Assembly: GCF_964213995.1 (NCBI RefSeq)
Contig: NC_135808.1
Location: 57,226,001 to 57,290,000 of the forward strand
Source of the DNA: Mustelus asterias
Taxonomy: Eukaryota
DNA length: 64,000 bases
Direction: 5' to 3'
Both the position numbers and the translations under genes were made by a program. The notes below the pieces were generated by a model, which made no database searches, was not told the DNA's origin, and saw only the letters and a list, made by a program, of their open reading frames with translations. Below are positions 24-57,992 of this stretch, in pieces. Within the stretch, counting starts at the first letter, position 1. The number at the start of each line of letters is the position of its first letter.

Positions 24-58
24 CATTAGCTTTCGGAGCGCTGCCCCTTCATCAGGTG
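24..58 (-). ncRNA. minimal hammerhead ribozyme motif (inverted arm copy)
   Basis: minus strand CAC-CUGAUGA-A-GGGGC agc GCUCC-GAAA-GC-UA-AUG; one stem I mismatch. Confidence 0.6.
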
Positions 59-1457
59 AGTGGGAGTTCTATTCACAATCCGGGCATAAACAAGACACAA
101 ACTCAATTTACAAAATAATGGTTGGAATACAAGTCTTTACAGGTAATCAAGTCTTAAAGGTACAGACAATGTGAGTGGAGAGAGCATTAAGCACAGGTTA
201 AAGAGATGTGTATTGTCTCCAGACAGGACAGTTAGTGAGATTTTGCAAGCCCAAGCAAGTCGTGGGGGTTACAGATAGTGTGACATGAACCCAAGATCCC
301 AGTTGAGGCCGTCCTCGTGTGTGCGGAACTTGGCTATCAGTCTCTACTCAGCGACTCTGCGTTGTCGTGTGTCGTGAAGGTCGCCTTGGAGAACACTTAC
401 CCGAAGATCAGAGGCTGAATGCTCGTGACCGCTGAAGTGTTCCCCAACAGGAAGAGAACACTCTTGCCTGGTGATTGTCGAGTGGTGTTCATTCATCCAT
501 TGTCGTAGCGTCTGTATGGTCTCCCCAATGTACCATGCCTCGGGACATCCTTTCCTGCAGCGTATCAGGTAGACAATGTTGGCCGAGTTGCAAGAGTATG
601 TACCGTGTACCTGGTGGATGGTGTTCTCACGTGAGATGGCATCCGTGTCGATGATCTGGCACGTCTTGCAGAGGTTGCTGTGTCAACATGTCATTGATGA
701 AGACAAACATCTCGCCAAGGCCATCCCCACACCCCCACTTCTTGCCTTCAAACAACCGCACAACCTCAAACAGACCATTGTCTGCAGCAAACTACCCAGC
801 CTTCAGGAGAACCGTGACCACAACACCACACAACCCTGCCACAGCAACCTCTGCAAGACGTGCCAGATCATCGACACGGATGCCATCATCTCACGTGAGA
901 ACACCATCCACCAGGTACACGGTACATACTCTTGCAACTCGGCCAACGTTGTCTTCCTGATACGCTGCAGGAAAGGATGTCCCGAGGCATGGTACATTGG
1001 GGAGACCTTGCAGATGCTACGACAACGGATGAATGAACACCGCTCGACAATCGCCAGGCAAGACTGTTCTCTTCCTGTTGGGGAACACTTCAGCGGTCAC
1101 ATGCATTCGGCCTCTGATCTTCGGGTAAGTGTTCTCCAAGGCGGCCTTCACGACACTCGACAACGCAGTGTCGCTGAGCAGAGACTGATGGCCAAGTTCC
1201 GCACATATGAGGACGGCCTCAACCGGGATCTTGGGTTCATGTCACACTATCTGTAACCCCCACGACTTGCCTGGGCTTGCAAAATCTCACTAACTGTCCT
1301 GTCTGGAGACAATACACATCTCTTTAACTCCACTCTCTCCACTCACATTGTCTGTACCTTTAAGACTTGATTAGCTGTAAAGACTCGCATTCCAACCATT
1401 ATTTTGTAAATTGAGTTTGTGTCTTTATATGCCCTGTTTGTGAATAGAACTCACACT

Positions 1458-1492
1458 CACCTGACGAAGGAGCAGCGCTCCGAAAGCTAGTG
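1458..1492 (+). ncRNA. minimal type I hammerhead ribozyme motif (PLE family 1)
   Basis: CAC-CUGACGA-A-GGAGC agc GCUCC-GAAA-GC-UA-GUG: conserved core, stem II, palindromic AGCU stem III, CAC/GUG stem I. Confidence 0.75.
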
Positions 1493-1709
1493 GCTTTTGC
1501 TACCAAATAAACCTGTTGGACTTTAACCTGGTGTTGTGAAACTTCTTACTAGGAGGGAGGCACAGCATCTGCTTCACCAGAATAGCACCAGGTCTTCAAT
1601 GTTTAGATTATGAAGAGAAATTACATAAAATGAGTTTTGTATTCTGGAACAAAGGCAGTTAATGGATAATTTTGATTGAATTTGTGGATTATGAAAGGAA
1701 TTAATAAGG

Positions 1710-3264: not shown

Positions 3265-4545
3265 AAAACAAATGATGCGGATGCTGGAATCTGAAACCAA
3301 AAGAGAAAGCCGGGGGGGGGGTGTGGATTCTCCCATTCTGACCCGCTAATTTTTTCGTGGGTCAGGAGATGCGCGTGTGCGCCGATTCACGCATGTGTTC
3401 CCGCGCACGTGTGTCTCACACCGCTGGAAATCCAGCGTGGCCGGGCCCGGTGGGAACACTAGGTAAGTCATTTTAATCTATTTTCAATGTGATTATTGGG
3501 CCCAGGACTGCATTCTCTGGGCCCGATAGCATCTCCCACTCCACCAGTACAATTTCACTCCGGTGAGGTTTGGAGTAGCTCCCCACTTTCGGGGAACTAG
3601 CGGGAGACCCCACTGGAGTGAAGGGGGGGGGGGGCAATTGCCCCCCCCCCCCCCTGTTGGACTGGGGATGGTGCCCCCTTGGCATGGGCACTTGGGCAGT
3701 GCCAGCCTGTGCCCCTCAGCACTGCCCACTGGGGTGGTGGTTAGGGGCAGTGTCAAAGGGTTGGGATTTAGGTGGTGGGGCCTAGGGGTGATCGGTGGGG
3801 TGGGGGGGATTTGTCACTGCTGGGGCAGGGGGAGGGGTGGAGGGCTGGAGAATGGCGTGCTCTGGGACAAGGGGAGGTTGGGGCTGGCCTGGGAATAGTC
3901 GTGGGGGCTGCAGTCGGGCCATGTGAGGGGCTGGAGGGGCAGCAGTGCAGGGGTCCTGAGCTGGCCAGCAAACCGCAGTTTGGGGCCACTGTGTGCATCT
4001 GCAGAGTTCTGGAACTGTCAGACTCCCATGTGAATAGGCCCCGCCCCCCCGAACTTGTAATGATATTCACGATTGTGACCTCTGCATTGCACAGAATGTG
4101 GGAGATTCGAGTTTGAACTCCCACTGAAAAAACAATCATGACTAACATTTCATTTTTCCCGCCAATTGAGCACTTAGAACTTTTTTGGGAGAATTGCCCC
4201 CAAAATGCTGGAAAATCTCAGCAGGTCTGGCAGCATCTGTAAGGAGAGAAAAGAGCTGACGTTTTGAGTCCAGGTGGCCCTTTGTCAAAGCTAAAAGGCA
4301 TAGAAAGTGGGAGATATTTATACTGCAGGGTGAGGGAATGATAGATAGTCAGAGCCACAAAAACAAGGGAAAAGGCTGCTAATGGCAGTCCATAGAGAGA
4401 ATAAAAGGTGTGATTGGAAAATGGCAGAGAAGCTGAAATCGAAGGGTAAGGCAGATGAAAATGTGGGGGGAGGGGGAATAGGTGGGATAGAGGTAAAATT
4501 GAGAAAAGAGGGGATAAAATAGGGGAAAGAGGGAGTGGATGTAGT
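3265..4545 (-). mobile_element. longer family 2 copy (3265-3309 + 4202-~4545) split by a Harbinger-type insertion
   Basis: family 2 terminus stops at 3309 and resumes at 4202 (aaaatgctggaaaatctcagcagg); decayed hammerhead on minus strand ~4254-4292 (AGCU-UUGACAA-AGGGCC accug GACUC-AAAA-CG-UC-AGCU). Confidence 0.7.
3312..4201. mobile_element. GC-rich non-autonomous DNA transposon, probably PIF/Harbinger type
   Basis: terminal inverted repeats ggattctccca / tgggagaattgcccc; cleanly interrupts a family 2 element. Confidence 0.65.
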
Positions 4546-4579
4546 TTTGCCTTTCACTTGGCCAAAGGTGATCCTCTAG

Positions 4580-4665
4580 AAACAGGCTGAATGGCCTGTT
4601 TCTGCACTGTAGGGTTTCTATGATTTCTATGATCTATGATTTCTATGATCTATGATTTCTATGAG
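4580..4665 (+). repeat. HE1/CR1 3' tail with expanded (tttctatgatctatga)n
   Basis: ggctgaatggcctgtttctgcactgtagggtttctatgatttctatgatctatg... Confidence 0.8.
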
Positions 4666-4794
4666 AATCATAATCATAAGAACTAGGAGCAGGAGTAGGC
4701 AATTTAGCCCCTCTAGCGTGGTCTGCCATTTAAGATAATCATGACTGATCTCACCAGGAGAGCCCCAATAAATGCAGTGTGTCTTTCTTTGCAG

Positions 4795-4918
4795 CCTGTC
4801 GGTTGTGATGGTCTCCTGTACTCTTCCAAAAGGCTGGATAAATGTGGGCTCTGCGGTGGTGACGGCAGCACCTGCTTCCGAATCTCGGGCACTTACCGAC
4901 GAGGAATCACACGCTTGG
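4795..4918 (+). CDS. ADAMTSL2: ADAMTS-like protein 2 subfamily gene (possibly adamtsl7 paralogue), internal exon A: end of Cys-rich module
   Basis: ctttgcag|CCT...TTGG|gtaggt; PVGCDGLLYSSKRLDKCGLCGGDGSTCFRISGTYRRGITRL(G), the GCDG...DKCGxCGGDGSTC motif of ADAMTS/ADAMTSL proteins. Confidence 0.93.
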
Positions 4919-5699
4919 GTAGGTGTGAGTCTAACTATGTTTTGCTCAAACTAATAGAATCTCACACTGAGATGTTTTCCACAACCGTCTTGGTAAGAGG
5001 TGATGCCTTTGACCCAGCGGCATCGCATGCAGCAACATCTTTAATATAGATTGTTGTTTTAGAGGTGGAAAGTTGGGGGTTGTGTCTTAACTGAGTCAGA
5101 GTGATCGTAACAACAGTCGGCTTTTATATGGTGCATTTAAATGTAAAAATGACCCAAGCTGTTTCACAGGGCGTTAAGTTATCAAGCAAAAATTGACACC
5201 CAGCCACGGAAGGAGATATTAGGACAGGTGACCAAAACCTTTGAAGGGAGTAGGTTTTGAGGAGGGTTTTAATGGAGGCGGGTTAGTCAGAAAGGCAGTA
5301 AGATTTAGAGAGAGAATTCCAGAGCGAAGAGCTGAGGTGGCAGGAGGCAGGGTTGCCATTGGTAACATGAAACAAATGGAGATGCACAAGAGTCCGATGT
5401 AACATGGGTAAATTACAAACCCCGATTGAACTATTTAACATTAAGTTACGCAAAGGGGTGACAGACAAAGCTGGTCTGTGATGCTTGAAGGAGCTTTTCA
5501 GATGAGCTTCTTTCCAAAACTTGAAAGCTTTGAATTGAGATCAAGGATTCCAATGTACACCATCATTAAATAGAGATTTCTGGATAGGGAGTCATGTTTT
5601 ATTTAGGAGCAATACTTGCGGGCAGCCCCAACATCCCTGCATTCAAATGTAACTGAGGTGATTTCTGCTTTGATGACCATCTTTCCCCTTGGTCTGCAG

Positions 5700-5780
5700 G
5701 TTATCTCTTCATTACGAATATTCCCGTTGGTGCTTCTGATATCCAAATTATTGAAAGGAGGAAAACAGAAAATATTTTAG
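5700..5780 (+). CDS. ADAMTSL2: ADAMTSL2-like exon B: start of spacer domain
   Basis: ggtctgcag|G...TTAG|gtaatt; (G)[26 protein letters not shown], phase 1/1 consistent with neighbours; not in the ORF track. Confidence 0.92.
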
Positions 5781-5894
5781 GTAATTTCATTGAATTAGTT
5801 CAAACATTTCTTCACCCCTTTTTAACCCCACACCTACTCCTCCCTTATTTTTGTTGTGTTATTAATTACTACTCCATTGTTTTACCTCTTAAAG

Positions 5895-6070
5895 CTCTTG
5901 CAGACGAAGGTGGATACTTTTTCTTCAATGGGAACACAGCAATTGACAATCCTCGGAACTTCCGGGTGGCCGGGACAATATTTAAGTATAGACGACCTGC
6001 AAATCCGCTGTCTGATGGCTTTGAATACATCATTGCTCAAGGGCCCACCAACCAAGGACTGAATGTTATG
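5895..6070 (+). CDS. ADAMTSL2: ADAMTSL2-like exon C: spacer domain
   Basis: cttaaag|CT...ATG|gtatgt; (A)[58 protein letters not shown]. Confidence 0.93.
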
Positions 6071-7633
6071 GTATGTAACTCTGATAACAGCAACAATAGG
6101 CTTTATACTGTCATTTCATCTGTAACCTTGTGATCACTGAGAGGCACAGGCCCTGTTAATACATACTTTTAATTAGTTACCCATCAATTTAAAAAAGTGT
6201 AGGAATTACAATAGGTGATGTTTACATATTGAAAGGACATATGATTACATGTAGAGGGAGGGTACTTTCTGTAATCCCTCTGGAAGGAAAGAATACCATC
6301 TTGAAAGGACATAGTCTTTGTCAATCATGTTTTCTTTCAATAATTATCTCCCCTGCTCTCCTCCAGAAGGCAAATACCCTTACAGTTCCAAGTAATTGTT
6401 ATGCACTTGTGGACCTTGGCAGTCAATTTGATAAAGCTGTTTGGCTACAGAGTGCGTCACAGCAAAGCAGTCCCCTATCTACATGTGTGTTTTCCACCAG
6501 TCATTGATGTACAGAAGCTACCCTGGTCTTCCCACCCTCGCCTCCACCCTCCCTAATCTTGGGACATTGTGATCATCTGTAGCTCATGTATTGATGTCCT
6601 TAGTGATGCCTCTCTGTGGACTAGGAATTGAATCATACAATCAGAGAGAGGCCATTCTGCACACCCTGTTTGTGCCAACTCTCTGCAAGAGCTAGTCAAT
6701 TAGTTATACTCTTCTGCTGTTTCCCAATAGCCCTGCAATTTTTCCTCCTTCAGTTGCTTATCACTGGCATTATTTTAATAAATCTTCTCGCCCTCTCTTT
6801 GAGGCTTTGACAACTTTGTGCTGACAAGATAATCCAGCTGGTTTGCGGGGGGCGGGTGTATGAGTATTTGCTTTTGTTCTCTGTTCCCCTATTAATAAAG
6901 GCAAGAATCCCATCTGCTTTTCTAACAGCCACCTCGACTTATCTTGCTAACTTTTTGGAAAAATTTGTGTATGCTTACCTCCACATCTTGACCGTGTTCC
7001 TTTCAATGTTACCGTTTTGTTTATACTGCCCCTTATTTTTCTGATTGAAAGCCTTCACTTTGCACACATTGCACCCGCTATATGTCTGCCCACTTCATCG
7101 TTCAGTATTCGTCCTCCTGAAGTCTGTTGCTACCTCCCTCATTGCTCACTAGATTTTCTTGTATTATGCCATCTGTGAATTTTGAATTTGTACGCTGCTT
7201 ATCCAAGTCCAACTCAATATATATCTCAAAATGCAGTGGTCCTAATACAGACTCCTGGGGAACACCGTTTTTCTTTGCTTTCTATCTCTTAGCCAATTTC
7301 ATTCATAAACTTTCCCGTCCCTTTAAACCCATTTACTTCAATTTTGCTAACAAGACTACTTTGTGGTTCTTTATCGAACACCTTTTGAAAGTACATATAC
7401 AAATCACACACTACCTTCATCAACTTTCCATGATACTTCATCAAAGAACCCAATCCTGTCTGGCAGGAATTAGCTTCTCAATTAATGACCTTTCAGAGGC
7501 ATCGGATAACTGTTCTTACTGATGGTCACCAAATTTCAAACTAAACATGGCAAAACATTACTGAGTAGACTTGACACGGGTAGACAGGTCTATATGATAT
7601 TGAGATAATGTTATCTGTTTTATTCTGACAATA

Positions 7634-8131
7634 TTAGAGTCATAGAGGTTTACAGCATGGAAAAAGGCCCTTTGGCCCAACTTGTCCATGCCGCCCTATT
7701 TTTTTAAAACTCCTAAGCTAATCCCAATTGCCGCATTTGGCCCATATCCCTCTATACCCATCGTACCCATGTAACTATCTAAATGCTTTTTAAAAGACAA
7801 CATTGTACCGCTTCTACTACTACCTCTGGCAGCTTGTTCCAGACACTCACCGCCCTCTGTGTGAAAAAATTGCCCCTCTGGACACTTTTGTATCTCTCCC
7901 CCCTCACCTCAAACCTATGCCCTCTAGTTTTAGACTCCCCTACTTTTGGGAAAAGCTATTGACTATCTAGCTGATCTGTGCCCCTCATTATTTTATAGGC
8001 CTCTATAAGATCACCCCTCAGCCTCCTACGCTTCAGAGAGAAAAGTCCCAGTCTATCCAGCCTCTCCTTATAACTCAATCCATCAAGTCCCGGTAGCATC
8101 TTAGTAAATCTTTTCTGCACTCTTTCTAGTT
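7634..8131 (-). mobile_element. CR1 LINE 3' fragment
   Basis: KLERVQKRFTKMLPGLDGLSYKERLDRLGLFSLKRRRLRGDLIE plus 3' UTR. Confidence 0.9.
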
Positions 8132-9170
8132 TGTTCTGTGCTATCTTCCTAAATTTTGTTGAAAATAAGGATGGTATCTTCTCATGATGTTTTTTCACCT
8201 GACAACATTTCACACTGCTTTGGAGGCTGCACCATATTAACAGCTTGGCTATTGGGAGAATACTGGCTGCATTATGGATGAATGAAATGGAGCTTCCAAC
8301 TCTGTGACAGAGCAATGTATCAATTCCAATTCATCTATAGGAAATTCTTTTTTAAAATTTTAATCAGAATCGATACTTTTCATAAGACAGTCAAGCAACT
8401 AATCAGGACTAGGTTTCCATTGACCCTGTAGGGAGCATTTGACCACCCTTTGTTAGCTAAAGAGTGGAAAGTTGGTGCCTGGAAATTTCTCTCTTTGCTG
8501 TTTGAAAATATTGCTGGAGGTCTTCTCACATGATCTTCTGCAACCAAACGCCCCAAACCTACTGTTGGTTAGCCAAGATGTCCATCCTTTCGGTGTACTG
8601 TCTTCCCACACAGATTGGAAAATGAATAGGTTTCTCATTATCCAATGGTTCATGATGTCAGCTTTTACCCATATCCAGTACTTTTCTAACCAGTAAACAA
8701 AAGTGTTCAAAAAAAATTAACAAGAACAATTTTTCATTGCCATTTCGATTTTTCTCCGGGGCCGCTGGCTACAGTGTTTTGGAGATTAACCTTAATTGAG
8801 GAGACTCCAGGGCAGTCTTGGAGGATTGGCTACCCTACCATGAGCCATTCATTATTTCTCTGTGCAAAGTGTCAGCTTGGTTGAATGACAGCATGCTCAC
8901 TTCTGAATCAGGAGATAAGAATAAAAAAGTAGGGTTCAAGCTCTGTTCCTCAGCGTGAGCTCACAATTGAAACTGACCCTCCAGGAATCCTGCATCATTG
9001 GAAGTGTTGTGTCTTTTGGATGAGACATTCAACATGGGCCCTATTCATCTGCCATGTTCAAATGTCAAGGATTCTGCAAGTGCTATTCAAAGAGTAGGGG
9101 TGCTTTCCAGGCACCTGGCCAATATTCAGTAACCAGCTTCACCCAACTAGATAAACTGACCATTGACCTT

Positions 9171-9402
9171 TAGATAAAGGCAAAATACTGCGGATGCTGG
9201 AACCTGAAACAAAAACAAAGTGCTGGACAAACTTGGTGGGTCTGACAGCATCTGTGGAGAGAGAGAATAGAGCCAACGTTTCGAGTCTGGATGACCCCTC
9301 GTCCGAACTCCGAAGGGTCATTCAGACTTGAAACGTTGGCTCTTTTCTCTCTCCACAGATGCTGTCAGATGTGCTGAGTTTCTCCAGCGTTTTCTGTTTT
9401 TG
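9171..9402. mobile_element. palindromic short element, family 2 (probably Penelope-derived), with degenerate hammerhead motif
   Basis: inverted arms around ~9308; perfect 14 bp TSD tgaccattgacctt (9157-9170, 9403-9416); minus strand C(G)GACGA-GGGGUC aucca GACUC-GAAA-CG-UU. Confidence 0.85.
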
Positions 9403-12641: not shown

Positions 12642-13128
12642 CATGATGTGGAGATGCTGGCGTCGGACTGGGGTGAACACAGTAAGAGTTTTAACAGCAC
12701 CAGGTTAAAGTCCAACAGGTTTATTTGGTAGCAAATACCATAAGCTTTCGGAGCGCTGCTCCTTCGTCAGATGGAGTGGAAATGTGCTCTCAAACAGTGC
12801 ACAGAGACACAAAATCAAGTTACAGGATACTGATTAGAATGCGAATCCCTACAGCCAGCCAGGTCTTAAAGATACAGACAATGTGGGTGGAGGGAGCATT
12901 AAGCACAGTTCAAAGAGATGTGTATTGTCTCCAGACAGGACAGCCTGCAAGTCCAGGAGGCAAGCTGTGGGGGTTACTGATAATGTGACATAAATCCAAC
13001 ATCCCGGTTTAGGCCGTCCTCATGTGTGCGGAACTTGGCTATCTGATAGCCAAACTGATAGCCAAGTTCCGCACACATGAGGACGGCCTAAACCGAGATG
13101 TTGGATTTATGTCACATTATCAGTAACC
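12642..13128 (-). mobile_element. Penelope-like element 3' fragment with short inverted arm
   Basis: same terminus as other family 1 copies (catgatgtggagatg...); endonuclease C-terminus; ~12975-13043 is inverted at ~13053-13128. Confidence 0.85.
12738..12774 (-). ncRNA. minimal hammerhead ribozyme motif (PLE family 1)
   Basis: minus strand CCAU-CUGACGA-A-GGAGC agc GCUCC-GAAA-GC-UU-AUGG. Confidence 0.75.
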
Positions 13129-15258: not shown

Positions 15259-15470
15259 AAATAAAAGCAAAATACGGCAGATGCTGCCAATCTGAAATAA
15301 AAGCAGAACATTTTGGAAAAGCTTAACAGACCTGGCAGCATCTGTGGAGAGAAAAACCGAGCTCGAGTTTCGAGTCCGTACAACTCTTCTCTTCAGAGCA
15401 AAACATTAACTCTGTTTCTCTCGCCGCAGATGCTGCCAGACCGGTTGAGTTTTTCCAGTGTTTTCTGTTT
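15259..15470. mobile_element. palindromic short element, family 2
   Basis: aaagcaaaatacggcagatgct...cagcatctgtggagaga / tctctcgccgcagatgctg inverted arms; minus strand CUGAAGA...GAGUU guacg GACUC GAAA. Confidence 0.75.
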
Positions 15471-16462
15471 TCTGATTCAGAGGCGTGAGACTTGAGGTCA
15501 CCGAAAACTTGCAGCAAGGCCTGTTCCCCTGTACTTGCTGACCTACACTATCTCCCAGTCAAGCAACGTCTTGATTTTAAAATTCTCATCCTTTGTTTCT
15601 GAATCCATCCATGACGGCACCCATTCCTATTTTTATAATCTCCTCTTGTCTCTCAACCCTCTGAGATATCTTGCCCTCCGTAAATTTTGGCCTTGTGCTC
15701 ATCCCTGATTTTAAATACTCCAGCAGTGTGACTGTCTTCAGTTGCCTAAATCCCAAGCGCTGCTCCACCTCTTCACCTGGTTTTCCTCCTCAAAACCTAC
15801 ATCTTTGCCCAGGCTTTTGGGCATCTGCCCTAGTATCTCCTCAGGTGGCTCAGTGTGATACTTTGTTTTATAACGCTCCTGTGAAGCACCTCGAGACATT
15901 TATTACATTAAAGGTGCTATTTATGTCGTTGAAAGAAAATTGTCATCTGGTGGAAAAGGGCTGGTTGGGGTGAGAGGGGGGTGCAAGTTTCCAGCTGAAG
16001 TGGGTTGTATCTATTGAGGTGGTTATTCAGTTGAGCGATGCAATTTGAATTGGCAGGCTGTGCATGCTGTATGGCTGTCATTTTTTTTTTTGCTTGAGCA
16101 ATATGGCCAGGTTATAGAGTCTGAGAAGGTCTGAGTGATGGCTCTCCTTAGAAGGGGGATTAAAGCGTGTTAATTTTGCCAATCAATGTATAGTGCAATT
16201 GTCGGGGCCTACATGCATAACTCCATTTTCTCCCTCTGAATGAACTGTCGGTGGATGGATCATTCCAAAAATTATTTTACGGGGATGTGGCAAGGCTAGC
16301 ATTTGTTGCCCATTCCTAATTATCCTAGTTAGGCCATTGCAGAGAGTCAACCACATCACTGTGGATCTGGAGTCACATATAGACCAGGTAAAGGCAGCAG
16401 ATTTCCTGCCCTTAAGGATATTAGTGAACCAGCTGGGTATTTCTGACAAACGATGATGATTT

Positions 16463-16805
16463 ATCATAGAAACCCTACAGTACAGAAAGAGGCCATTCGG
16501 CCCATCGAGTCTGCACTGACCACAATCCCACCCAGGCTCTACCCCCATATCCCTACATATTTTACCCACTAATCCCTCTAACCTACGCATCCTCAGGACA
16601 CTAAGGGGCAATTTTAGCATGGCCAATCAACCTAACCTGCACATCTTTGGACTGTGGGAGGAAACCGGAGCACCCGGAGGAAACCCACGCAGACACGAGG
16701 AGAATGTGCAAACGCCACACAGACAGTGACCCAAGCCGGGAATCGAACCCAGGTCCCTGGAGCTGTGAAGCAGCAGTGCTAACCACTGTGCTACCGTGCC
16801 GCCCC
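16463..16805 (-). mobile_element. HE1/V-SINE, full length
   Basis: minus strand: tRNA-like head with A box (tagcacagtgg) and B box (ggttcgattcc), V-domain gggtttcctccgggtgctccggtttcctcccacagtccaaaga, CR1-like tail ...tttctatgat. Confidence 0.92.
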
Positions 16806-21430: not shown

Positions 21431-21602
21431 TAAAAGCAAATTACTGCGGATGTTGAAATCTGAAACAAAAACAGAAAATGCTGGAAAATCTCAGCAGGTC
21501 TGACAGCATCTGTGGAGAGAGAACAGAGTTCAGACTCCGTGCTAGTTCTGTGCTCTCCCCATAGATGCTTTCAGTCATGCTGAGATTTTCCAGCATTTTC
21601 TG
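21431..21602. mobile_element. palindromic short element, family 2, centre deleted
   Basis: same arms as the 9171 copy; imperfect flanking duplication actgta(ct/ta)agtt. Confidence 0.75.
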
Positions 21603-21756
21603 ACACTGTATAAGTTTCCCACTGGTGTGTCAGCTCACTTCCCATTCTTCTTCTCATTCTCTGCTTCATACCCAACTTTACTGAAACTACCTCTTGAATT
21701 CCTTCAATTTGTTTAGCAGGACAGTATCGCAACTCTTCTGGTTGAGGGTGGGGTGT

Positions 21757-29878: not shown

Positions 29879-30448
29879 GTGCCTTTGGAAACCCTACAGC
29901 CCTTCACTTCTACAAGTACAGGGCCATGATTCTTTTACTCAGTTGGAGTATGGGGTGTGGGTGGGAGGGGTGATGTTAAAGCAGAGGGGATTAACACATG
30001 CATTGGAAACATTCACCCCTTCTTGAAGAGTGTCACCAAACATATGAGACATTAGCCATTATCCACGAGTTGGTCACGAGATTTGATCCGTCGGTGTGAC
30101 ACCAGATTGAAATGTTCTGTTTTCTTCTTCCGTTGGGGGAGACAGTCCATTTATTTTCGGAATTGCAATTCTCCAAGTTGCCAAAATCCCAGAATATTGC
30201 AGGCTCTGCATGTTTCAAATCGCTGACTCTGGATCCACCTGGGAGCATCCTCCTGAGCTGTGCTGACTGGCACCCTGAGGCTGGCAGTGCCATGTTCAGC
30301 TTGCCATGAGGATGCTTTCAGTGTGACCCCTTCTCCTTCCATAAATATCTATTGCTGTCACAGAAAAACTGGCGCAAGAGTGCAATGCAGTGGGTGCAGA
30401 AGGAAATCTCATGAAGCTCAGACCAAGATCACGGGCTTTTAGATTCAT

Positions 30449-30657
30449 CACAGTAAGAAGTCTCACACCAGGTTAAAGTCCAACAGGTTTAATTTGCAGC
30501 ACAAGCTTTCAGAATGTCACTCCTTCTTCAGATGACTCACCTGAAGAAGGAGTGACACTCCGAAAGCTTGTGCTGCCAGATAAATCTGTTGGACTTTAAC
30601 CGGGTGTTGCGAGACTTCTTACTGTGCTTACCCGAGTCCAACGCCGGCATCTCCACA
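30449..30657 (+). mobile_element. palindromic Penelope-derived short element (family 1)
   Basis: inverted arms around ~30533; TSD ttttagatt(c/a)at at 30437-30448 and 30658-30669. Confidence 0.85.
30538..30572 (+). ncRNA. minimal hammerhead ribozyme motif (PLE family 1 variant)
   Basis: CAC-CUGAAGA-A-GGAGU gac ACUCC-GAAA-GC-UU-GUG. Confidence 0.75.
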
Positions 30658-31070
30658 TTTTAGATTAATGCCACAGCTCTGGACTGCAGCAGCTTGTATT
30701 TATATCACACGCTCCATGTTCTGTGGGTATTTAAAGTGCCTCACAGCTAATCAATTGCGTCTGAAGTGTAATCGGTGTTGAAATGTGGCAGCCAGATTTT
30801 ACTACTTGTGGGAGCTTGCTGTGCATCAAGCTAATCACTAGATGATCTGTTTCAGTGATGCTGATTTGAGGGATACATTTTTGCCTGAAAACCTTTCAGA
30901 AGTCAGAGACCCTCACCTTAATAGTGCCATGGGGTTTTCCCTGCCCACCTCAGAGGCGAGATGGAAAATCAGTCTGAAAGGCAGCAGCCCTGTGACCCCT
31001 GCGCACAGCAAGTCATTCCTCCCCCCCCTCCCCCCCCCCACCCGCCCACACCCACCTGCCCCCCCCCCCC

Positions 31071-31857
31071 CCCCGTGCGGCGGGTCGTTGCCCCCCCCCC
31101 CCCCGTGCGGCGGGTCGTTGCCCCCCCCCCCCCCGTGCGGCGGGTCGTTGCCCCTCGCCCCCGTGCGGCGGGTCGTTGCCCCTCGCCCCCGTGCGGCGGG
31201 TCGTTGCCCCTCGCCCCCGTGCGGCGGGTCGTTGCCCCTCGCCCCCGTGCGGCGGGTCGTTGCCCCTCGCCCCCGTGCGGCGGGTCGTTGCCCCTCGCCC
31301 CCGTGCGGCGGGTCGTTGCCCCTCGCCCCCGTGCGGCGGGTCGTTGCCCCTCGCCCCCGTGCGGCGGGTCGTTGCCCCTCGCCCCCGTGCGGCGGGTCGT
31401 TGCCCCTCGCCCCCGTGCGGCGGGTCGTTGCCCCTCGCCCCCGTGCGGCGGGTCGTTGCCCCTCGCCCCCGTGCGGCGGGTCGTTGCCCCTCGCCCCCGT
31501 GCGGCGGGTCGTTGCCCCTCGCCCCCGTGCGGCGGGTCGTTGCCCCTCGCCCCCGTGCGGCGGGTCGTTGCCCCTCGCCCCCGTGCGGCGGGTCGTTGCC
31601 CCTCGCCCCCGTGCGGCGGGCCGTTGCCCCTCGCCCCCCGTGCGGCGGGCCGTTGCCCCTCGCCCCCCCGTGCGGCGGGCCGTTGCCCCTCGCCCCCCCG
31701 TGCGGCGGGTCATTGCCCCTCGCCCCCCCGTGCGGCGGGTCATTGCCCCTCGCCCCCCCGTGCGGCGGGTCATTGCCCCTCGGCCCCCGTGCGGCGGGTC
31801 ATTGCCCCTCGGCCCCCGTGCGGCGGGTCATTGCCCCTCGCCCCCGTGCGGCGGGTC
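31071..31857. repeat. GC/CpG-rich minisatellite, 28 bp unit, roughly 27-28 copies
   Basis: unit ccccgtgcggcgggtcgttgcccctcgc; ORF periodicity of 28 aa equals 3 units. Confidence 0.97.
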
Positions 31858-32560
31858 AGCACACACCCCCTCCCCTAGCAGCAAAGCATTCCCCCAGTAC
31901 TCTATTGACCTGTCAACTTTAGCTTCCTTCTGAATTTTGGATGAGACAGGTGGGGAGGGGATATTGGGAACGAAATTCCACTGAATCCCTGCTTTTGTGC
32001 AAGTTGGTAAGAATGTGGAACCCGCTCCCACGCGGAGTAGTCGAGACACCTTTTAAAGCGAAGCTGGATGAACACGAGGGAGGAAGGAATAAAAGGTTAT
32101 GTTGATCAGGCAAGAGGAAATGAGGTGGGAGGAAGCTCGTGTGAAACATAAACATCATCACAGAGCAATTTGTCTGATTGGTCTGTTTCTGTGCTGTTAA
32201 TTCTCAGTAATGTAGTTGCGTGGATACTGTGATCTGGGGTGAGCCAAGTTCTGAACAGCTTTTTTGATTTTAGCCCATGTTCGGTCTGAATCGGAGGGAG
32301 ACAGACGGTGGGTGGGGAGTTACAGCAGCTGCTCAAATGGTCAGAGCCAGCAGGTGGCAGCACTGCAGACTGAACTGTGTCGCCCTCCTGTTTATGTTAC
32401 ACAGCCAGATCGCAACTGCACAGAATCCACAACAGATGTGACCTGGCATGAAACAGAAAAAGATTACTTGTGATTTACCTCCGCTAACTGTGTCCATGAT
32501 GGCCAGTGAGCCTCGGATCAGCTGGTCCCTTTCCCTGCTTTGATTAATTTCCTATTTATT

Positions 32561-32911
32561 TATAGGATCTTTACAGTGCAGAAGGAGGCCTTTCAGCCCA
32601 TCGAGTCTGCACCGACTCCGCAGAGCATCTTACCCAGGCCCATCCCACCTGTCCTATCTTTGTATCCCCATGCATTTACCATAGGCAATCTACACACCTT
32701 TGGACACTTAAGGAGCAATTTACCATAGACAATCCACCTAACCTGCATGTCTTTGGACTGTGTGGGGGGAAACTGGAGCGCTCCGAGGAAACTCACGCAG
32801 ACATGGGGAGAGCGTGCAAACCCCACACAGTCAGTCCCCAAGGCTGTAATTAATCCTGGATCCCTGGTACTGTGAGGCAACTGTGCTAATCACTGTGTCA
32901 CCGTGCCGCCC
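32561..32911 (-). mobile_element. HE1/V-SINE, diverged full length
   Basis: homologous to 16463-16805. Confidence 0.85.
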
Positions 32912-34039: not shown

Positions 34040-34310
34040 CATAGAAATCATAGAAAGAAATCATAGAAACCCTACAGTACAGAAAGAGGCCATTCGGCCC
34101 ATCGAGTCTGCACCGACCACAATCCCACCCAGGCCCTACCCCCACATATTTACCCACTAATCTCTCTAACCTACACATCTCAGGACACTAAGGGGCAATT
34201 TTTAGCATGGCCAATCAATCTAACCCGCACATCTTTGGACTGTGGGAGGAAACCGGAGCACCCGGAGGAAACCCACGCAGACACGAGGAGAATGTGCAAA
34301 CTCCACACAG
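34040..34310 (-). mobile_element. HE1/V-SINE, 5'-truncated
   Basis: nearly identical to 16463-16720; repeated atagaaatc tail. Confidence 0.88.
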
Positions 34311-34689
34311 CATTCTCCACACAGTACTCCACACATCTCAAGCTTGAGCCTGCTGATGCAGGTTTGATCAGTATCCGGCCCAAGTTGAGGTTTTTGGTGA
34401 AGGATCATGAAGAAGCTGGCACAATTGAATGCTCTATCACCTTTGATAAAGTAAAAATAAGGTTTATTTATTAGTCAAAAGTAGACTTGCATTCACATTG
34501 CAATGAAGTTAATGTAAAAATGTGTCTATGAATGTGAATTGAGATTCCATGTGATTTTTGCGCATATGTGGGAAAGGATGTCACCATTGGACAGCAATCC
34601 TGAAAAAGTATTTACCACCTTCATTACTTTGGGCAGGTTACTTGTACCAAAGGGCATCAATAATTCAGCAACTGACATAGAAAGAAAGA

Positions 34690-47149: not shown

Positions 47150-49935
47150 TCACCTGTAACCCACACACGGTCTCCAAGTTCCATCTGACTTGGGCACCAG
47201 GACGATAGGACTCCAGTCACTAGAACTTAATTCAGTGAGATCATTTTGGAGCATGTACTCCATTTCCTTTTATACTTGCAATAACTTAGCTGGACCTAAC
47301 CTATATGGATGTTGTTTGATTGGAACGGTGTCCCCCACATCTGCGCCATGCGCCACTAGCTCCATTTTACCTAGTTTATCCCTGCATATACATTTATAGG
47401 TCTGCAGTAATTCTGTCAGTTTGCTCTGGCTTTTATCTGAGGGATGATGTATCCACTGGTTTAAATTTCCCAGTACTTCCTCATTGCCCAAATGAATTTT
47501 AGGGCAGTCACTATTACAATTTTCTCCCTGGTCTTCCCCCTACTTTGTGACTATCAAGGCCTCATGCTTGTTCTCATGTACACAGTCACATTTGGGAATG
47601 CTTTTGAGTTCTAGTGCTGGGTCCGCAGTCTAATAGGGTTGTTTTAATCTTGAGCCACCCTGCTGTAATTCAACTAAGGTCTTGAAATCGAAGCCATCAT
47701 TCTCACTCTCTACATCTGTCTCATTCTCAGTTAACCTGCTAAAGATGGTATCAGATAACCTGATCCCCTTTGCCTCGCCCTGGGCTCGCAACTCCTCCCT
47801 CTTTTGTCTTAGCTGCTGAACCTGTGATCACGTCACTACACCATCTTAAAAAAACCCAGGATGGTCTGTTTGTAATTATTCTGTGGCTGGATTTTCTACC
47901 AGCTGCTCGACCACAGTAGGCATCATGACGATCTGTCATCCTGCTATATCATTCCCTAGAATGAATTGAATGCCTGCAATGGGTAGGGTTTCAACCATGC
48001 CTATCACTACTTCTCCCGTCTCCAAGCTACTCTCTAAGCTTACTTTTATTAAAGGGATTTCTTTTGTTTCTCCTTGAATTCTGTGAATTAACTAACACCT
48101 TCTCCAGCAACATCCCTTCTGGGCAACAAATATCTCTATCCCACAACATTGGAGATCGACTCGCATCAATATCTCATTACATTTTAAGAAGTCTCACAAC
48201 ACCGGGTTAAAGTCCAACAGGTTTATTTGGAATCACAAGCTTTCGGAGCACTGCTCCTTCATTAGCAGCGTTCCGAAAGCTCGTGATTCAAAATAGACTT
48301 GTTGGACTTTAATCGGGTGTTGTGAGACTTCTTACTGTGCCCACTCCAGTCCAACGCCATCATCTCCACATCATTATATTTTACCATTCCAAACTGCCCA
48401 CATGGAAATATTTACCTTTACACACACAATCTTTGAGTATATCTGCCACCTGCTGGTCATTCTGCCCCTGTGCAAGTGGTGCGCACATTTTCATCCCCTT
48501 TGTCGCGTGTGTACCAATCCAACTGGCTTCTTTGGTTCCCCAGCTTTTAACTTTCCTTTGTCCTGTATATGATTGATAATCCCGACTGGATGACCATTTA
48601 GTGTCCAGCATAATGATTTGGTGTGGCTCAGTTTGTTTGAATGAAAACACCTGGCTTTTATCTCTCACTCCTCCAACAGACTCGGGTTTATTTTGAGGGG
48701 GATTCTCCTTGGAGCTTCCTATCACTCCCTCTCTTGCTAGCCTGCCCCGCCTCGCACCTTCCAAGTTTCTAGTTTCCTCTGATCGAAAGATGGGTCTAAA
48801 GAAAAGCTTTGGTCTGGGAACCAACTCCTAATTGTTCGCAAGCTCTGCAGCTTGTCTGGCCGTTCTAACATTTTGTTCTCGACGTGCGTTCTAATCATGG
48901 CAGGCAGCGAATCTTTAAACTCTGCCAGCAAAATGATCTCTCTAAGTGCTCCATAGCTTTCAGCTATCACATCCATTTATCAAACTGACTTTGTTTGACC
49001 CTTTCAAATTCAAGGTACGTTTACCCAATCTGTTTTCTTATAGCTCTAAACTGTAAGCCTTTGATACCAGCTCATAAGCACACATTAAAGTGTTCTTCAC
49101 TGCCTCAGTCTCCAGACCTTTCCTCAGTCAGAGACACATATACCTCACTAGCCCTACCTACAAATTTAGCTATCGAAAGAGCTACCTCACTAGCCCTACC
49201 TACAAATTTAGCCTGTGTGGTCAGGGTCCAAATGTCTTGTGGCAATCACATCGGCCTAGCTATTTTCTCAAAACACACAAAGTCTTGATTTCTTTTGCAT
49301 TGAATTTTGGGAGAGCTTGTACATATCTGAACATTTCCCCACAGGCTTCCTGCCTTGAACCACTTTCTTCCTCATTCAGCTCTGTACCTGCTGCCATTTG
49401 TCGCAGTTTAATTTCATGCTCCCTCTCTTTCTCCCTCCCTTCCATTACAAATCTCTCTTTGGCTCTTTCCTCTCTTTCCATCTCTTCTCTTTCCCTCTCT
49501 TTCCTTTTTTCTCTCTCTCTCTTTCCTGCATCACTGACTTAATTGATATGCCTCTTTCTACTTGAAGCTTAGCTAGTTCGATTTCTTCCCTTCTCGAAAT
49601 ATTGGGTCTGGCTAACCCCTCTTGTATATTTAAATGGGTTGCTAGACTTTCAAATATCTCCGCTTTCTAAGCTAGTGTAAATGAAGCCGTTTCCAATTTA
49701 TTTGCCAATTCCATCAATTTAATTTTTGGCACACTTTTTAAACTTGCTACGGTTACATTATCTACTTCCAGCTAAGATCGAACTACCTCCAAAGCCATTT
49801 TGCAACCCTGTTATTTTAAATAACACATTCTCACTTGTTTACACATGGTCATTACTCTCATTCGGTGCAAAGTCAAAAATCCCCTACATCTAAGGAATTT
49901 AAGCTTTTTAGTATCCCAGACTCGAGCCCCTAATT
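47150..49935 (-). mobile_element. decayed Gypsy/Ty3 LTR retrotransposon internal region (Gmr1-like, SCAN-type gag)
   Basis: coiled-coil gag EREKEREHEIKL...LPKFN; SCAN-like LREIILLAEFKDSLP..IRTHV; pol-like H..DVGD..PIKQHPYR; tRNA-Pro-like PBS at 49913-49932. Confidence 0.75.
48187..48370 (+). mobile_element. palindromic Penelope-derived short element (family 1) with deleted centre, nested in the Gypsy remnant
   Basis: inverted arms; TSD tcatta(c/t)atttta at 48174-48186 and 48371-48383. Confidence 0.85.
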
Positions 49936-50750
49936 TTCTGGGGCGATACCCCTCTGATGTTAACTGCAAAGGTATCCCAACTTGGAAATACTGGTTCATG
50001 GTGGTGTATAGTTTTGTCTACAGGAATGGTGGAAGGAGCCATGTGCAAGACCCAGTGAGAACAGTAACAAGCCCAGTCCTAGTATAACGCTGATTTAAAA
50101 ACTATTTATTACAATAAAGAAAAGACACATTTACACAAACAGGACTATAATGATCTAAGACAGTTGCGTAGAAGAAACTACTAAACTCACCCACAAAGTT
50201 GAGTAGAAATTGCCCTTTTTGTTTCAAAATATGTTTACAAGATCTGAACTCTTTCAGGACTTCTCTCTCCTCAAACAACATCCAATTCAATAGATCTAGA
50301 AGTAAAGGCCAGCTTATAATTACCTCACTGTATACAATTGAATAGTTATTCTGGGAAGAATCTTTTGGTTCAGCAAAGACATGGTTTTAACTGCCTTCAC
50401 AAAGATTTCTGCTTCTGGTCTGCTGGGTTATAGGCTCTCGGGGTGCTAGATGGATCCTGCCTCTCGGGGTGCTAGATCAAATCTGCCTCCTGCTTCCATG
50501 AAAAGGTCACCAATAATACCATTGTTTTGCTTTGAAGATTCTCCCTATTTGCTTCTTCAGCTTCTGTTAGTTCTAAAAGATTAACATGTAAGCCTTCCCT
50601 GGATGGTGCAATCGTATACCCCAAAGTTTTTCCTATTAGCAGAATGATAGATTCTTCTGTTCTGTTTCCAGCTGCTAATCTTGTTGCACACACCCACACT
50701 GATACAGTCAGGGCCGCACACCCCACACTGACAAAACATGAAAACCCAAG

Positions 50751-51288
50751 CCACACTGACATTAACACTCGGGGACACGTACCCCACACTGAGATTAACA
50801 CTCGGGGACATGTACCCCACACTGAGATTAACACTCGGGGACACGTACCCCACACTGAGATTAACACTCGGGGACACGTACCCCACACTGAGATTAACAC
50901 TCGGGGACACATACCCCACACTGAGATTAACACTCGGGGACACATACCCCACACTGAGATTAACACTCGGGGACACGTACCCCACACTGACATTAACACT
51001 CGGGGACACGTACCCCACACTGACATTAACACTCGGGGACACGTACCCCACACTGAGATTAACACTCGGGGACACGTACCCCACACTGACATTAACACTC
51101 GGGGACACGTACCCCACACTGACATTAACACTCGGGGACACGTACCCCACACTGACATTAACACTCGGGGACACGTACCCCACACCGAGATGAATGCTCA
51201 GGGACACGTACCCCACACCGAGATTAACACTCGGGGACACGTACCCCACACTGAGATGAATGCTCAGGGACACGTACCCCACACTGAC
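50751..51288. repeat. minisatellite, 33 bp unit, about 16 copies
   Basis: unit cacactga(g/c)attaacactcggggacacgtaccc (HTEINTRGHVP). Confidence 0.97.
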
Positions 51289-51521
51289 GTTTACATTGCT
51301 ATGCTCTCGCCTCACTCTGTAGTCTCCGGCACTACTGCCCCTCCTGACTCTAAAGAAAGAAGGCACCAGGAGTTCTTGTGTGAGTTTGATTCTAGCCGTG
51401 AACTGACTTGTCTCCATGGTGTGGTTTTTTGTATCGCGTTAGCCTAATGCGCTGTATGTTTTGGTGTTTTGTAGCAGATATTTCAGAATTCACTTTTTTT
51501 CAGATGGACTAGCAGTGTTTG

Positions 51522-51874
51522 CTCGAGTTGGCACACTAACCTTAGTATCTCGAGTTGGCACACTAGCCTTAGTATCTCGAGTTGGCACACTAACCTTAGT
51601 ATCTCGAGTTGGCACACTAACCTTAGTATCTCGAGTTGGCACACTAACCTTAGTATCTCGAGTTGGCACACTAACCTTAGTATCTCGAGTTGGCACACTA
51701 ATCTTAGTATCTCGAGTTGGCACACTAATCTTAGTATCTCGAGTTGGCACACTAATCTTAGTATCTCGAGTTGGCACACTAATCTTAGTATCTCGAGTTG
51801 GCACACTAATCTTAGTATCTCGAGTTGGCACACTAATCTTAGTATCTCGAGTTGGCACACTAACCGTAGTATCT
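51522..51874. repeat. minisatellite, 27 bp unit, 13 copies
   Basis: unit ctcgagttggcacactaa(c/t)cttagtat (SRVGTLTLV). Confidence 0.97.
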
Positions 51875-52955
51875 TGGGAAATATACCTTGTTATAGACAA
51901 TCTGCTTCCCTTACTGCCCCCCAGCACAGTGGAAGATCTGCTGCTTGGGTGGCTGTATTATGCCTTTAGGTAATCTGGTTTTTGAGTTGATTAAGTATTG
52001 CCTGGCAACCTACTCCTGGAGAATGTCTTTAAATGAAAAAAGCAATGTTCTGTAATTAATGGAAATTTAATATGGAGGAGTCATGCTTTCTGCCTAAATG
52101 AACTAGGACCAAATCCATTGTTTTTGGCTTGTGTTAAAAACCCCATCCCCTCCCAGATACTTTCCCGGGATAACCCAGGCAACTTGACTGCAACCTGTTC
52201 AAACTGGTTTCTGACCCCATTCCACCTCCACCACAAAGATCACTCACCATCACTAACTCCACTCACCTCTATCACCCCTAACTCAGCTTAACTGCTGTTG
52301 CCTTTGTCACTTCCAAACTCAATTACTCCAAGTCTCCCCTGGCTGACCTCCCATCCTCCACTGGCCAACAACTTCTGACCATCGGAAATTCTGCTGTCCA
52401 TCCCTTCCTATAACAAGTCCTGCACTCCATCCAGACTGCTTCATCCTCTTCTAATCTTGCACCTTCAGTGCCTCAAATTACCAATGCTCATCCCTCCATG
52501 TTGAAATGGTTTCCCTCTTCCCTCTCTGTCTCTGCGACTTTCTCCAGCTCCATAATTCCTTCTTTTCATTAACTGCAGCCTCTTGTACTTTCCCCCAACT
52601 CTTCCTTCACTCCATTTTTGGTCCACTTTGGTTTTTGTCCCATGCCTTGCCTCTTCACCTCCCTCTTCTCCTTATAACCCTATTTTTTGACCAAGCTTTT
52701 GCTCATCCCTCCCAATATCTCCGTCTTTAGCTCAGAGTCCAATATTTTTACAGGTGAAGTGCTTTGTGACATTTTCTCTGTAATATATGTTCACTCAATA
52801 TTCATTCTTGGCATATGGCTGTCACAGGTAAGGCAGGCATTTATTACCCATCATGAATTGCCCCCGAGAAGCTGGTAGGCCTTAAAGCCCTGCAGCCCAT
52901 GGATCAAGGCGTTCCCACTGTGCTGTTTGAATGGGAGGTCTGGATTTTGTCCCAT

Positions 52956-53181
52956 GATGTGGAGATGCCGGCGTTGGACTGGGGTGAACACAGTAAGAAG
53001 TCTCACAACACCAGGTTAAAGTCCCAACAGGTTTATTTGGTAGCAAATACCATAAGCTTTCGGAGCGCCGCTCCTTCGTCAGATTCCACTCCATCTGACG
53101 AAGGAGCAGCGCTCCGAAAGCTTATGGTATTTGCTACCAAATAAACCTGTTGGACTTTAACCTGGTGTTGTGAGACTTCTT
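52956..53181 (-). mobile_element. palindromic Penelope-derived short element (family 1)
   Basis: near-perfect ~90 bp inverted arms around ~53085; perfect 12 bp TSD attttgtcccat at 52944-52955 and 53182-53193. Confidence 0.9.
53091..53127 (+). ncRNA. minimal hammerhead ribozyme motif (PLE family 1)
   Basis: CCAU-CUGACGA-A-GGAGC agc GCUCC-GAAA-GC-UU-AUGG; a mirror core with truncated stem I lies on the minus strand at ~53050-53084. Confidence 0.78.
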
Positions 53182-57763: not shown

Positions 57764-57992
57764 TTTAGATAAAGGCAAATTACTGCGGATGCGGTGCTGG
57801 AATCGGAAACAAAAATTGAAAAATGCTGGAAAATCCCAGCAGGTCTGACAGCATCTGTGGAGAGAGAATAGATCCAATGTTTTGAGTCTGGATGAATCTT
57901 CGGAAGGTTCATCCTGACTCAAACGTTGGCACTATTCTCTCTCCACAGATGCTGTCAGACCAGCTGAGATTTTCCAGCATTTTCGGTTTTTG
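57764..57992. mobile_element. palindromic short element, family 2
   Basis: tttagataaaggcaaattactgcggatgc...; inverted arms around ~57901. Confidence 0.8.

Follow-up and report, generated by a model that had tools for sequence, protein, structure and literature searches.

Minimal hammerhead motifs in an abundant Penelope-like retroelement of Mustelus asterias and the origin of their helix differences

In a 64,000-nucleotide stretch of the Mustelus asterias genome, here called the window, a dispersed repeat keeps the hammerhead core while its helices differ between copies, and from four such copies, the one at 30538..30572 foremost, the original prediction was that compensatory covariation supports a selected ribozyme fold. 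The locus therefore raises the question of whether these paired differences were fixed by selection, and on which elements selection would have acted. Also at stake is whether the hammerheads of Penelope-like elements (PLEs) cut in cells and whether cutting helps transposition.

A hammerhead motif and its carrier element

A core scan of the 64-kb window revealed seven arms with an intact core and a pairing stem II (1461+, 30541+, 53095+, 53082-, 30531-, 12770- and 55-). All seven have the type I order, with the core CUGANGA ... GAAA ... UH, AGCU in place of stem III, and an extra A between A9 and G10.1 that the original prediction had not recorded. Helix II is closed by G10.1-C11.1 with the unpaired nucleotide between 9 and 10.1, and the core is flanked by a short helix I in which 3-6 bp are possible and which is thermodynamically weak in monomers. 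The letters of the four cited copies had been read correctly: stem II is GGAGC/GCUCC at 1469-1481, 12762-12750 (minus strand) and 53103-53115 and GGAGU/ACUCC at 30549-30561, while the copies at 1458 and 30538 form stem I as CAC/GUG and those at 12738-12774 (minus strand) and 53091 as CCAU/AUGG. These are four of the seven, however, and the omitted arms include 55(-), with C.A at 2.1-1.1, and 30531(-), with three wobbles. It had also been claimed that N7 and H17 are variable, and both do vary between lineages, but CpG decay is the probable source of the N7=U seen in the window at 55(-), given the C at this position in the twin arm at 1461; this U7 and the C.A of the same arm probably arose after insertion. 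N7=U is a genuine lineage state all the same, found in 19/90 arms picked by their ORF end, as is H17=C (5/90). Genome-wide, the motif pattern has 78,741 exact matches in 3.68 Gb, short-loop lineages alone being counted, versus 0 for a reversed control, which is far beyond chance. An Rfam scan of the window returned 22 matches at E<=1, none of them to hammerhead families; these were hairpin-like miRNA models only, below threshold.

Table 1. Coordinates of the hammerhead motifs and associated features in the window.
Feature	Position	Strand	Basis
Twin hammerhead of the 1461 insertion; C.A mismatch at 2.1-1.1, U7	24..58	-	
C-terminal ORF fragment; C-x4-CxxC linker and GIY-YIG-type motif (VVFLIRC...YIGET)	573..1256	+	homologous to L227 ORF
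Hammerhead, C-G stem I lineage, N7=C, H17=A; in 3' UTR/pLTR past the endonuclease ORF	1457..1493	+	
Hammerhead, U-A stem I lineage, N7=C, H17=U	12738..12774	-	
Target-site duplication, 12 bp, left copy	30437..30448	+	by eye
Palindromic 5'-truncated Penelope-like insertion; left arm short tail, right arm long tail	30449..30657	.	
Decayed twin hammerhead, inverted arm; U.G at 2.1-1.1, two extra stem II wobbles; also carries T	30500..30534	-	
Minimal type I hammerhead motif (30538 copy)	30538..30572	+	sequence
Stem I 5' strand, 30538 copy	30538-30540	+	
CUGAAGA, 30538 copy	30541-30547	+	
Extra A, 30538 copy	30548	+	
Stem II, 30538 copy	30549-30553/30557-30561	+	
TG replacing the CG of the lineage's commonest form; makes the cited U-A pair	30553..30554	+	
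GAAA, 30538 copy	30562-30565	+	
Palindromic AGCU, 30538 copy	30565-30568	+	
H17=U, 30538 copy; predicted cut after 30569	30569	+	
Stem I 3' strand, 30538 copy	30570-30572	+	
Target-site duplication, right copy; 11/12 identical to 30437..30448	30658..30669	+	by eye
Palindromic stump of the Penelope-like family; both cores truncated or damaged; one arm H17=C	48185..48374	.	
Twin hammerhead, left arm; junction cuts stem I 5' strand	53050..53085	-	
Hammerhead, U-A stem I lineage, right arm of palindromic insertion 52956-53181	53091..53127	+	

The repeat, 'family 1' of the original prediction, is the pseudo-LTR (pLTR) of an abundant Neptune-like Penelope retroelement with a minimal type I hammerhead. 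A 26-nt word from the adjoining tail has 181,225 exact genome matches, and the more than 180,000 arms, with at least six ribozyme lineages among them, amount to a ready-made set of natural variants with a possible genomic cleavage footprint. At locus L227 a 915-aa frame (L227:1707-4451) with RVT_1 (E 4e-10), DKG, YIDD, a C-x4-CxxC linker and YLIRC..YIGET lies between an inverted and a direct pLTR. The GIY-YIG assignment was made by motif reading; Pfam gave no GIY-YIG match in the full L227 ORF and 0 families for the endonuclease fragment of the window, and a PDB sequence search with the full L227 ORF gave 0 hits. In the window the homologous fragment, whose first ~30 residues are inversion junction sequence, stops 200 nt upstream of the 1461 motif, and the motif sits between the end of the GIY-YIG ORF and the tail. 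Tails were short in 192 arms and long in 165, and the longest repeat shared by the outer ends of twin arms was 12-14 bp in 96/187 pairs; the insertion at 52956-53181 has an exact 12-bp target duplication, and the two arms of 30449..30657 differ at 9 positions and by one 3-nt gap over 90 columns. This layout of pLTR, inverted 5'-truncated copy, optional tail and target duplication, together with the RT/GIY-YIG ORF, identifies an endonuclease-bearing (EN+) Penelope-like element. Its linker between RT and EN, PCHSNLCKTC, has the CX2-5CxxC form used as a criterion in the accessible text of PMC8557442 and points to Neptune or Nematis, the clade placement resting on this sequence motif, which Nematis shares. 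At L227:4445-4510 about 60 nt are inserted by the ORF end, with the last codons duplicated and the usual terminal residue replaced; the 915-codon frame is otherwise open.

A hammerhead in a Penelope-type element is an arrangement already known, and the finding as originally stated repeats what is in print for Penelope-like elements. In the part of PMC4209133 available to us (Cervera and De la Pena 2014), minimal hammerheads (min-HHRs) are described in the pLTRs of metazoan PLEs, with covariation, dimers and low activity. The motif described here resembles these in its type I order, short helix I, the additional nucleotide at 9/10.1, G10.1-C11.1 pair, palindromic 15.1-16.1 segment, thousands of dispersed truncated copies and opposite-strand pairs. 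It differs in its helix II of 5-6 bp, in the 2-nt GC that separates A15.1 from U16.1, a feature of the D. virilis-type variant, and in its much higher copy number (78,741 versus about 4,000-9,000 in coelacanth and Xenopus), and the accessible portion of supplementary file 2 has no shark entries. As far as the available text of Craig et al. 2021 (PMC8557442) and Arkhipova et al. 2013 (PMC3846280) goes, the element is like Neptune-clade EN+ PLEs in its single ORF with RT and then a C-terminal GIY-YIG, its CX2-5CxxC linker, 5'-truncated inverted copy, one-sided tail and target duplication. PAc, a Poseidon-type PLE of Anolis carolinensis (Frangieh et al. 2024, PMC11167929, also available in part), likewise has a hammerhead by the pLTR-ORF junction, and its two RT start sites explain short and long tails, for which the 192 and 165 arms reported above are the counterpart. 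In PAc, however, the ribozyme contains the ORF start and depends on protein for cleavage, whereas here the motif lies ~90-100 nt upstream of a recurring CATCATG. A 2026 preprint (10.64898/2026.07.22.740005), in its accessible part, reports tandem retrozymes in one chondrichthyan. Our search found no literature on covariation in this family or on insertions that start at the cut site; subscription papers, Repbase/Dfam or supplementary file 1 of PMC4209133 may describe it.

Paired differences in stem II and stem I

The cited stem II difference is a U-A pair at 30553/30557, the fifth and loop-closing pair. The 30538 copy belongs to a minor lineage, with N7=A and loop GAC, whose commonest form has an unpaired C.A at this position: exact genome-wide matching of the first strand of this pair gave 419 copies with CG, 262 with TG and 115 with CA, and the three forms have the same flanks in 93 sampled arms. 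The U-A pair would thus have been reached from C-G through a C.A mismatch, the last step being C-to-T at a CpG. At 34 other CpGs of the lineage, the CpG site fixed by the search pattern being excluded, CG/TG/CA stand at 425/84/74. This background leads one to expect ~83 TG from 419 CG, or 115 with CA as the mirror, and a third to half of the U-A copies (83-115 of 262) are likely ordinary CpG decay. As the mismatched intermediate spread more than the repaired form, the U-A pair does not show selection for the pair, and as the fifth pair is dispensable it says little about selection; it is the least kept of stem II, with C-G in 65 of 76 distinct rows, no pair in 10, and U-A in the single row of the 30538 copy itself, which was added to the sample by hand. 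On a flank tree of the lineage built from a MAFFT alignment, T copies (8 of 37) are scattered, requiring 7 changes versus a shuffled mean of 7.4 (P=0.47), albeit on a poorly resolved tree. The proposal that the stem II U-A is compensatory covariation produced by selection is therefore not supported. A double-CpG ancestor with C-G for the 30538 stem was also rejected, T-G forms being rare (2/100 by eye among the matches listed), as was a private mutation, given the 262 copies.

One alternative is that selection fixed each cited difference, the stem II U-A included, as a compensatory change in the source lineage concerned. It can draw on the 262 exact copies of the 30538 word, on a TG count that exceeds CA 2.3-fold (p=1.5e-10) and lies above the background expectation of ~83, on the T carried by both arms of the 30538 insertion despite 9 other differences, on TG/TG in 7/23 twin pairings of the lineage, at gaps of up to 950 nt, and on a slightly lower divergence of TG copies (median 3.7% vs 4.6%, n=16 and 18). 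Against this, the unpaired C.A form is the most numerous and has the same flanks, CG/TG accounts for 8/23 twin pairings, the T copies are scattered and the pair itself is poorly kept, and we consider this explanation unlikely. The significant TG excess and the TG/TG twins nonetheless suggest that a minor T-bearing source probably exists, and it could have been favoured. The 30538 insertion probably derives from this source, because its arms share T yet differ at 9 other positions; arm-to-arm conversion may instead have given both arms their T, but discordant twins occur at gaps of 10-19 nt.

Other parts of stem II carry two-sided changes, with two rows each at pairs 3 and 4 in other lineages. 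A long-loop lineage (44,522 copies genome-wide, none in the window) keeps its 6-bp stem II in 18/18 arms while loop letters and the wobble position vary. Across the stems 91.8% of cells are paired versus 28-51% for slid controls, and 4/9 pairs have a two-sided change, a figure equalled in 32/500 shuffles, which ignore relatedness. Separately, a rare lineage (L380:266-307, L391:770-811 and L404:752-794) replaces the G-C of stem II pair 4 by A-U and has C-G as the fourth pair of stem I; its two-sided change is clearer than the cited one.

For stem I, the original prediction set CAC/GUG against CCAU/AUGG. Read outwards from the core, these differ by one two-sided change (C-G to U-A at pair 2.1-1.1) and one one-sided change of U.G to C-G, so that the two-sided change is genuine but is not a whole alternative helix. 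Among copies with H17=A, a restriction that avoids CpG, pair 2.1-1.1 is Watson-Crick (C-G or U-A) in 21,256/22,852 (93%), U.G in 1,236 and C.A in 360. The 3.4-fold excess of U.G over C.A contrasts with the equal numbers predicted by strand-symmetric mutation. By eye, 19 of 29 sampled U.G arms lie on one haplotype while 30 C.A arms are of several backgrounds, suggesting that a wobble lineage spread and that no large mismatch lineage did; the former may be an intermediate, a reversion or a recombinant. When 147 long arms were placed on a tree from which ribozyme and CpG columns had been masked, a single clade held the U-A copies (36 arms among the rows listed, support 0.99). The stem I covariation is thus real but is one event on one branch. 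These results carry a caution for repeat families, in which CpG decay and common ancestry make compensatory-looking pairs that therefore need to be counted per source lineage. The U.G lineage (L291, L294, L298, L301, L306 and L309) combines the upstream UTR of the U-A clade with the tail of a C-G lineage, and may be a recombinant between source elements.

Core conservation and copy starts

Conservation was assessed in arms picked blind to the ribozyme, by their ORF end (47,534 hits genome-wide). Of the 95 arms taken, most of them from the initial 5.6 Mb of a single contig, 3 that lacked a tail and 1 that was over-long were set aside, leaving 91 aligned and 90 parsed. A lineage variant was defined as one common to at least 3 loci, CpG transitions being set aside, and G8A (3 loci) and G12A (7 loci) were excluded from the core test as CpG decay. 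This revealed shared variants in 90/212 UTR columns, 9/46 tail columns and 0/11 core columns, or 0/16 when A9.1, G10.1, C11.1 and loop 3 are added. The core differs from the UTR (Fisher p=0.0035 for 11 columns, p=0.0003 for 16) but not significantly from the tail, itself conserved (p=0.18 and 0.10), which leaves room for a DNA- or protein-binding constraint that could contribute to core conservation. The parsed arms match the hammerhead rule that H17 is not G: H17 is U in 45, A in 40, C in 5 and G in 0, and N7 is C in 46, A in 23, U in 19 and G in 2, while AGCU is unchanged between lineages. Private mutation is similar in core and UTR (0.9% vs 1.1%; G12A 7 vs C11.1U 6), indicating neutral decay of the inserted copies. 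Selection likely maintained the hammerhead motif in the parent elements, and we infer that it acts on these source elements and not on inserted copies. Different source lineages did give rise to the cited copies (the 30538 word alone has 262 exact copies, and no cited variant is private to a single copy), and those lineages kept the catalytic core while its free positions changed. That the kept structure is functional we infer from sequence. The original conclusion thus holds better than the evidence first cited for it.

To look at where copies start, we counted genome matches to patterns that demand two non-template bases before a given position. For the long-loop lineage there were 1,594 starts at the predicted cut site, 422 two and 161 four nucleotides upstream, and 415 one and 379 four nucleotides downstream, where the one-downstream pattern allowed 6/16 dinucleotides and the downstream patterns pool other lineages; per allowed dinucleotide the site has 177 versus 18-69 at its neighbours. 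By eye, 60/100 of the cut-site junctions among the matches listed read AA or AG, which could be microhomology with the partner arm, and the remainder is ~2 to 5 times the -4, -2 and +4 neighbours. In the U-A lineage pattern counts at the site, -4 and +4 gave no peak at the cut site: 364 starts (61 per dinucleotide) fell there, as against 185 (21) at -4 and 1,284 (143) at +4; from this +4 peak, microhomology appears able to make peaks away from the cut site. Among 199 arms picked by their tail, 8 breakpoints, a small number that includes some artefacts, fell at offsets 0/+1. The start footprint is suggestive, lineage-limited and unproven, and microhomology at the junctions may contribute to it. 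It is possible, and we advance this tentatively, as somewhat short of an even chance, that in the long-loop lineage, with its 6-bp stem II and bulged 6-bp stem I, run-off of reverse transcription on cleaved RNA produced thousands of insertions starting exactly at the cut site, the weaker-folding U-A lineage leaving no such peak. If so, in vivo cleavage differs between lineages and can be read from DNA alone, and the family is at once a natural mutagenesis experiment and an activity record of a hammerhead in an animal germline.

Folding, mechanism and insertion sites

The conserved block might instead be kept for a non-catalytic reason, as a promoter element or as a binding or priming site of the ORF protein in DNA or RNA, with the hammerhead a relic that rarely or never cuts. 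This would fit the conservation of the tail, from which the core does not stand out significantly, and the U-A lineage, in which 364 starts at the predicted cut compare with 1,284 at +4; it would also fit the accessible results of PMC11167929, in which hammerhead mutants had no effect on insertion in vitro and no Anolis RNA-seq reads ended at the site, and the low activity in the available part of PMC4209133. On the other hand, the variable positions are precisely N7, H17 (which is never G) and loop II, amid invariant neighbours, the stem variants that expanded still pair, the loop-closing pair excepted, and the long-loop lineage has its peak of starts at the cut site, which together make this reading improbable in our judgement. 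Very unlikely is a third possibility, common ancestry and neutral drift in a few source elements with selection unneeded, which would accommodate the single-branch stem I change, its many copies being one event, and a covarying-pair count not clearly beyond shuffles (32/500), but not the contrast between 0/11 core and 90/212 UTR columns or the excess of U.G over C.A at a non-CpG pair. The explanation we favour, with considerable confidence, is a minimal type I hammerhead in a Penelope-like terminal repeat that is selected in a few RNA-making sources, the copies, including 30538, being neutral.

Folding predictions bear on how such a motif might work. Stem II forms in monomers, with pairing probabilities of 0.84-1.0 in 5/6, while the inner pair of stem I reaches P <=0.12 in 5/6. 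The full hammerhead lies 3-10 kcal/mol above the minimum-energy fold and is that fold in 0/6 monomers; in constrained folds the long-loop lineage is the most stable (median -11.7 vs -10.3 and -7.9 kcal/mol). An AGCU self-duplex is worth about -4.4 kcal/mol, and cofolding of two copies gave other duplexes, not a double hammerhead. A transcript of the 30449-30660 palindrome folds into one long hairpin with a stem II probability of ~1e-14, and with stem II buried in this predicted hairpin the 30538 copy is unlikely to be an active ribozyme. Under the favoured explanation, RNA of a source element would be cut after H17, probably as a dimer or with the aid of the element's protein: by analogy with PMC4209133 and PMC11167929, the self-complementary AGCU would replace stem III in a two-copy ribozyme, or the ORF protein would be needed. 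By the same analogy the motif would act in tandem source transcripts, the cut giving the 5' end of a unit that runs through the tail into the ORF. Inserted copies, 30538 among them, would mutate neutrally and are likely inactive.

Several further observations concern insertion sites and other repeats. One 1,866-nt stretch of a CR1-type ORF (reference L285:3370-5235, minus strand; loci include L130, L141, L152, L189, L195, L200, L209, L308 and L377) receives 60 of the 524 arm flanks and is an insertion hotspot within another repeat, in which 22/60 flanks fall at positions 889-905, from several lineages and in both orientations, with smaller clusters at ~502-512 and 958-969. Close opposed arms with different lineage markers (N7, loop II) occur at L019, L034 and L040, which suggests either that one insertion drew on two templates or that an existing copy later took an insertion. 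The window also holds a second short palindromic repeat family (4202, 9217-9400, 15290-15470, 21455-21610 and 57800-57990), with Rfam hairpins below threshold and no hammerhead core match in the window scan, and a dispersed SINE-like family (16460-16800, 32557-32835, 34058-34315, 44456, 59389 and 63612). Tandem arrays at 31040-31870, 50620-51410 and 51440-51950 have units of 28, 33 and 27 bp, and directly 3' of the window (L234-L237) a satellite-like tandem repeat containing long open frames extends over ~35 kb.
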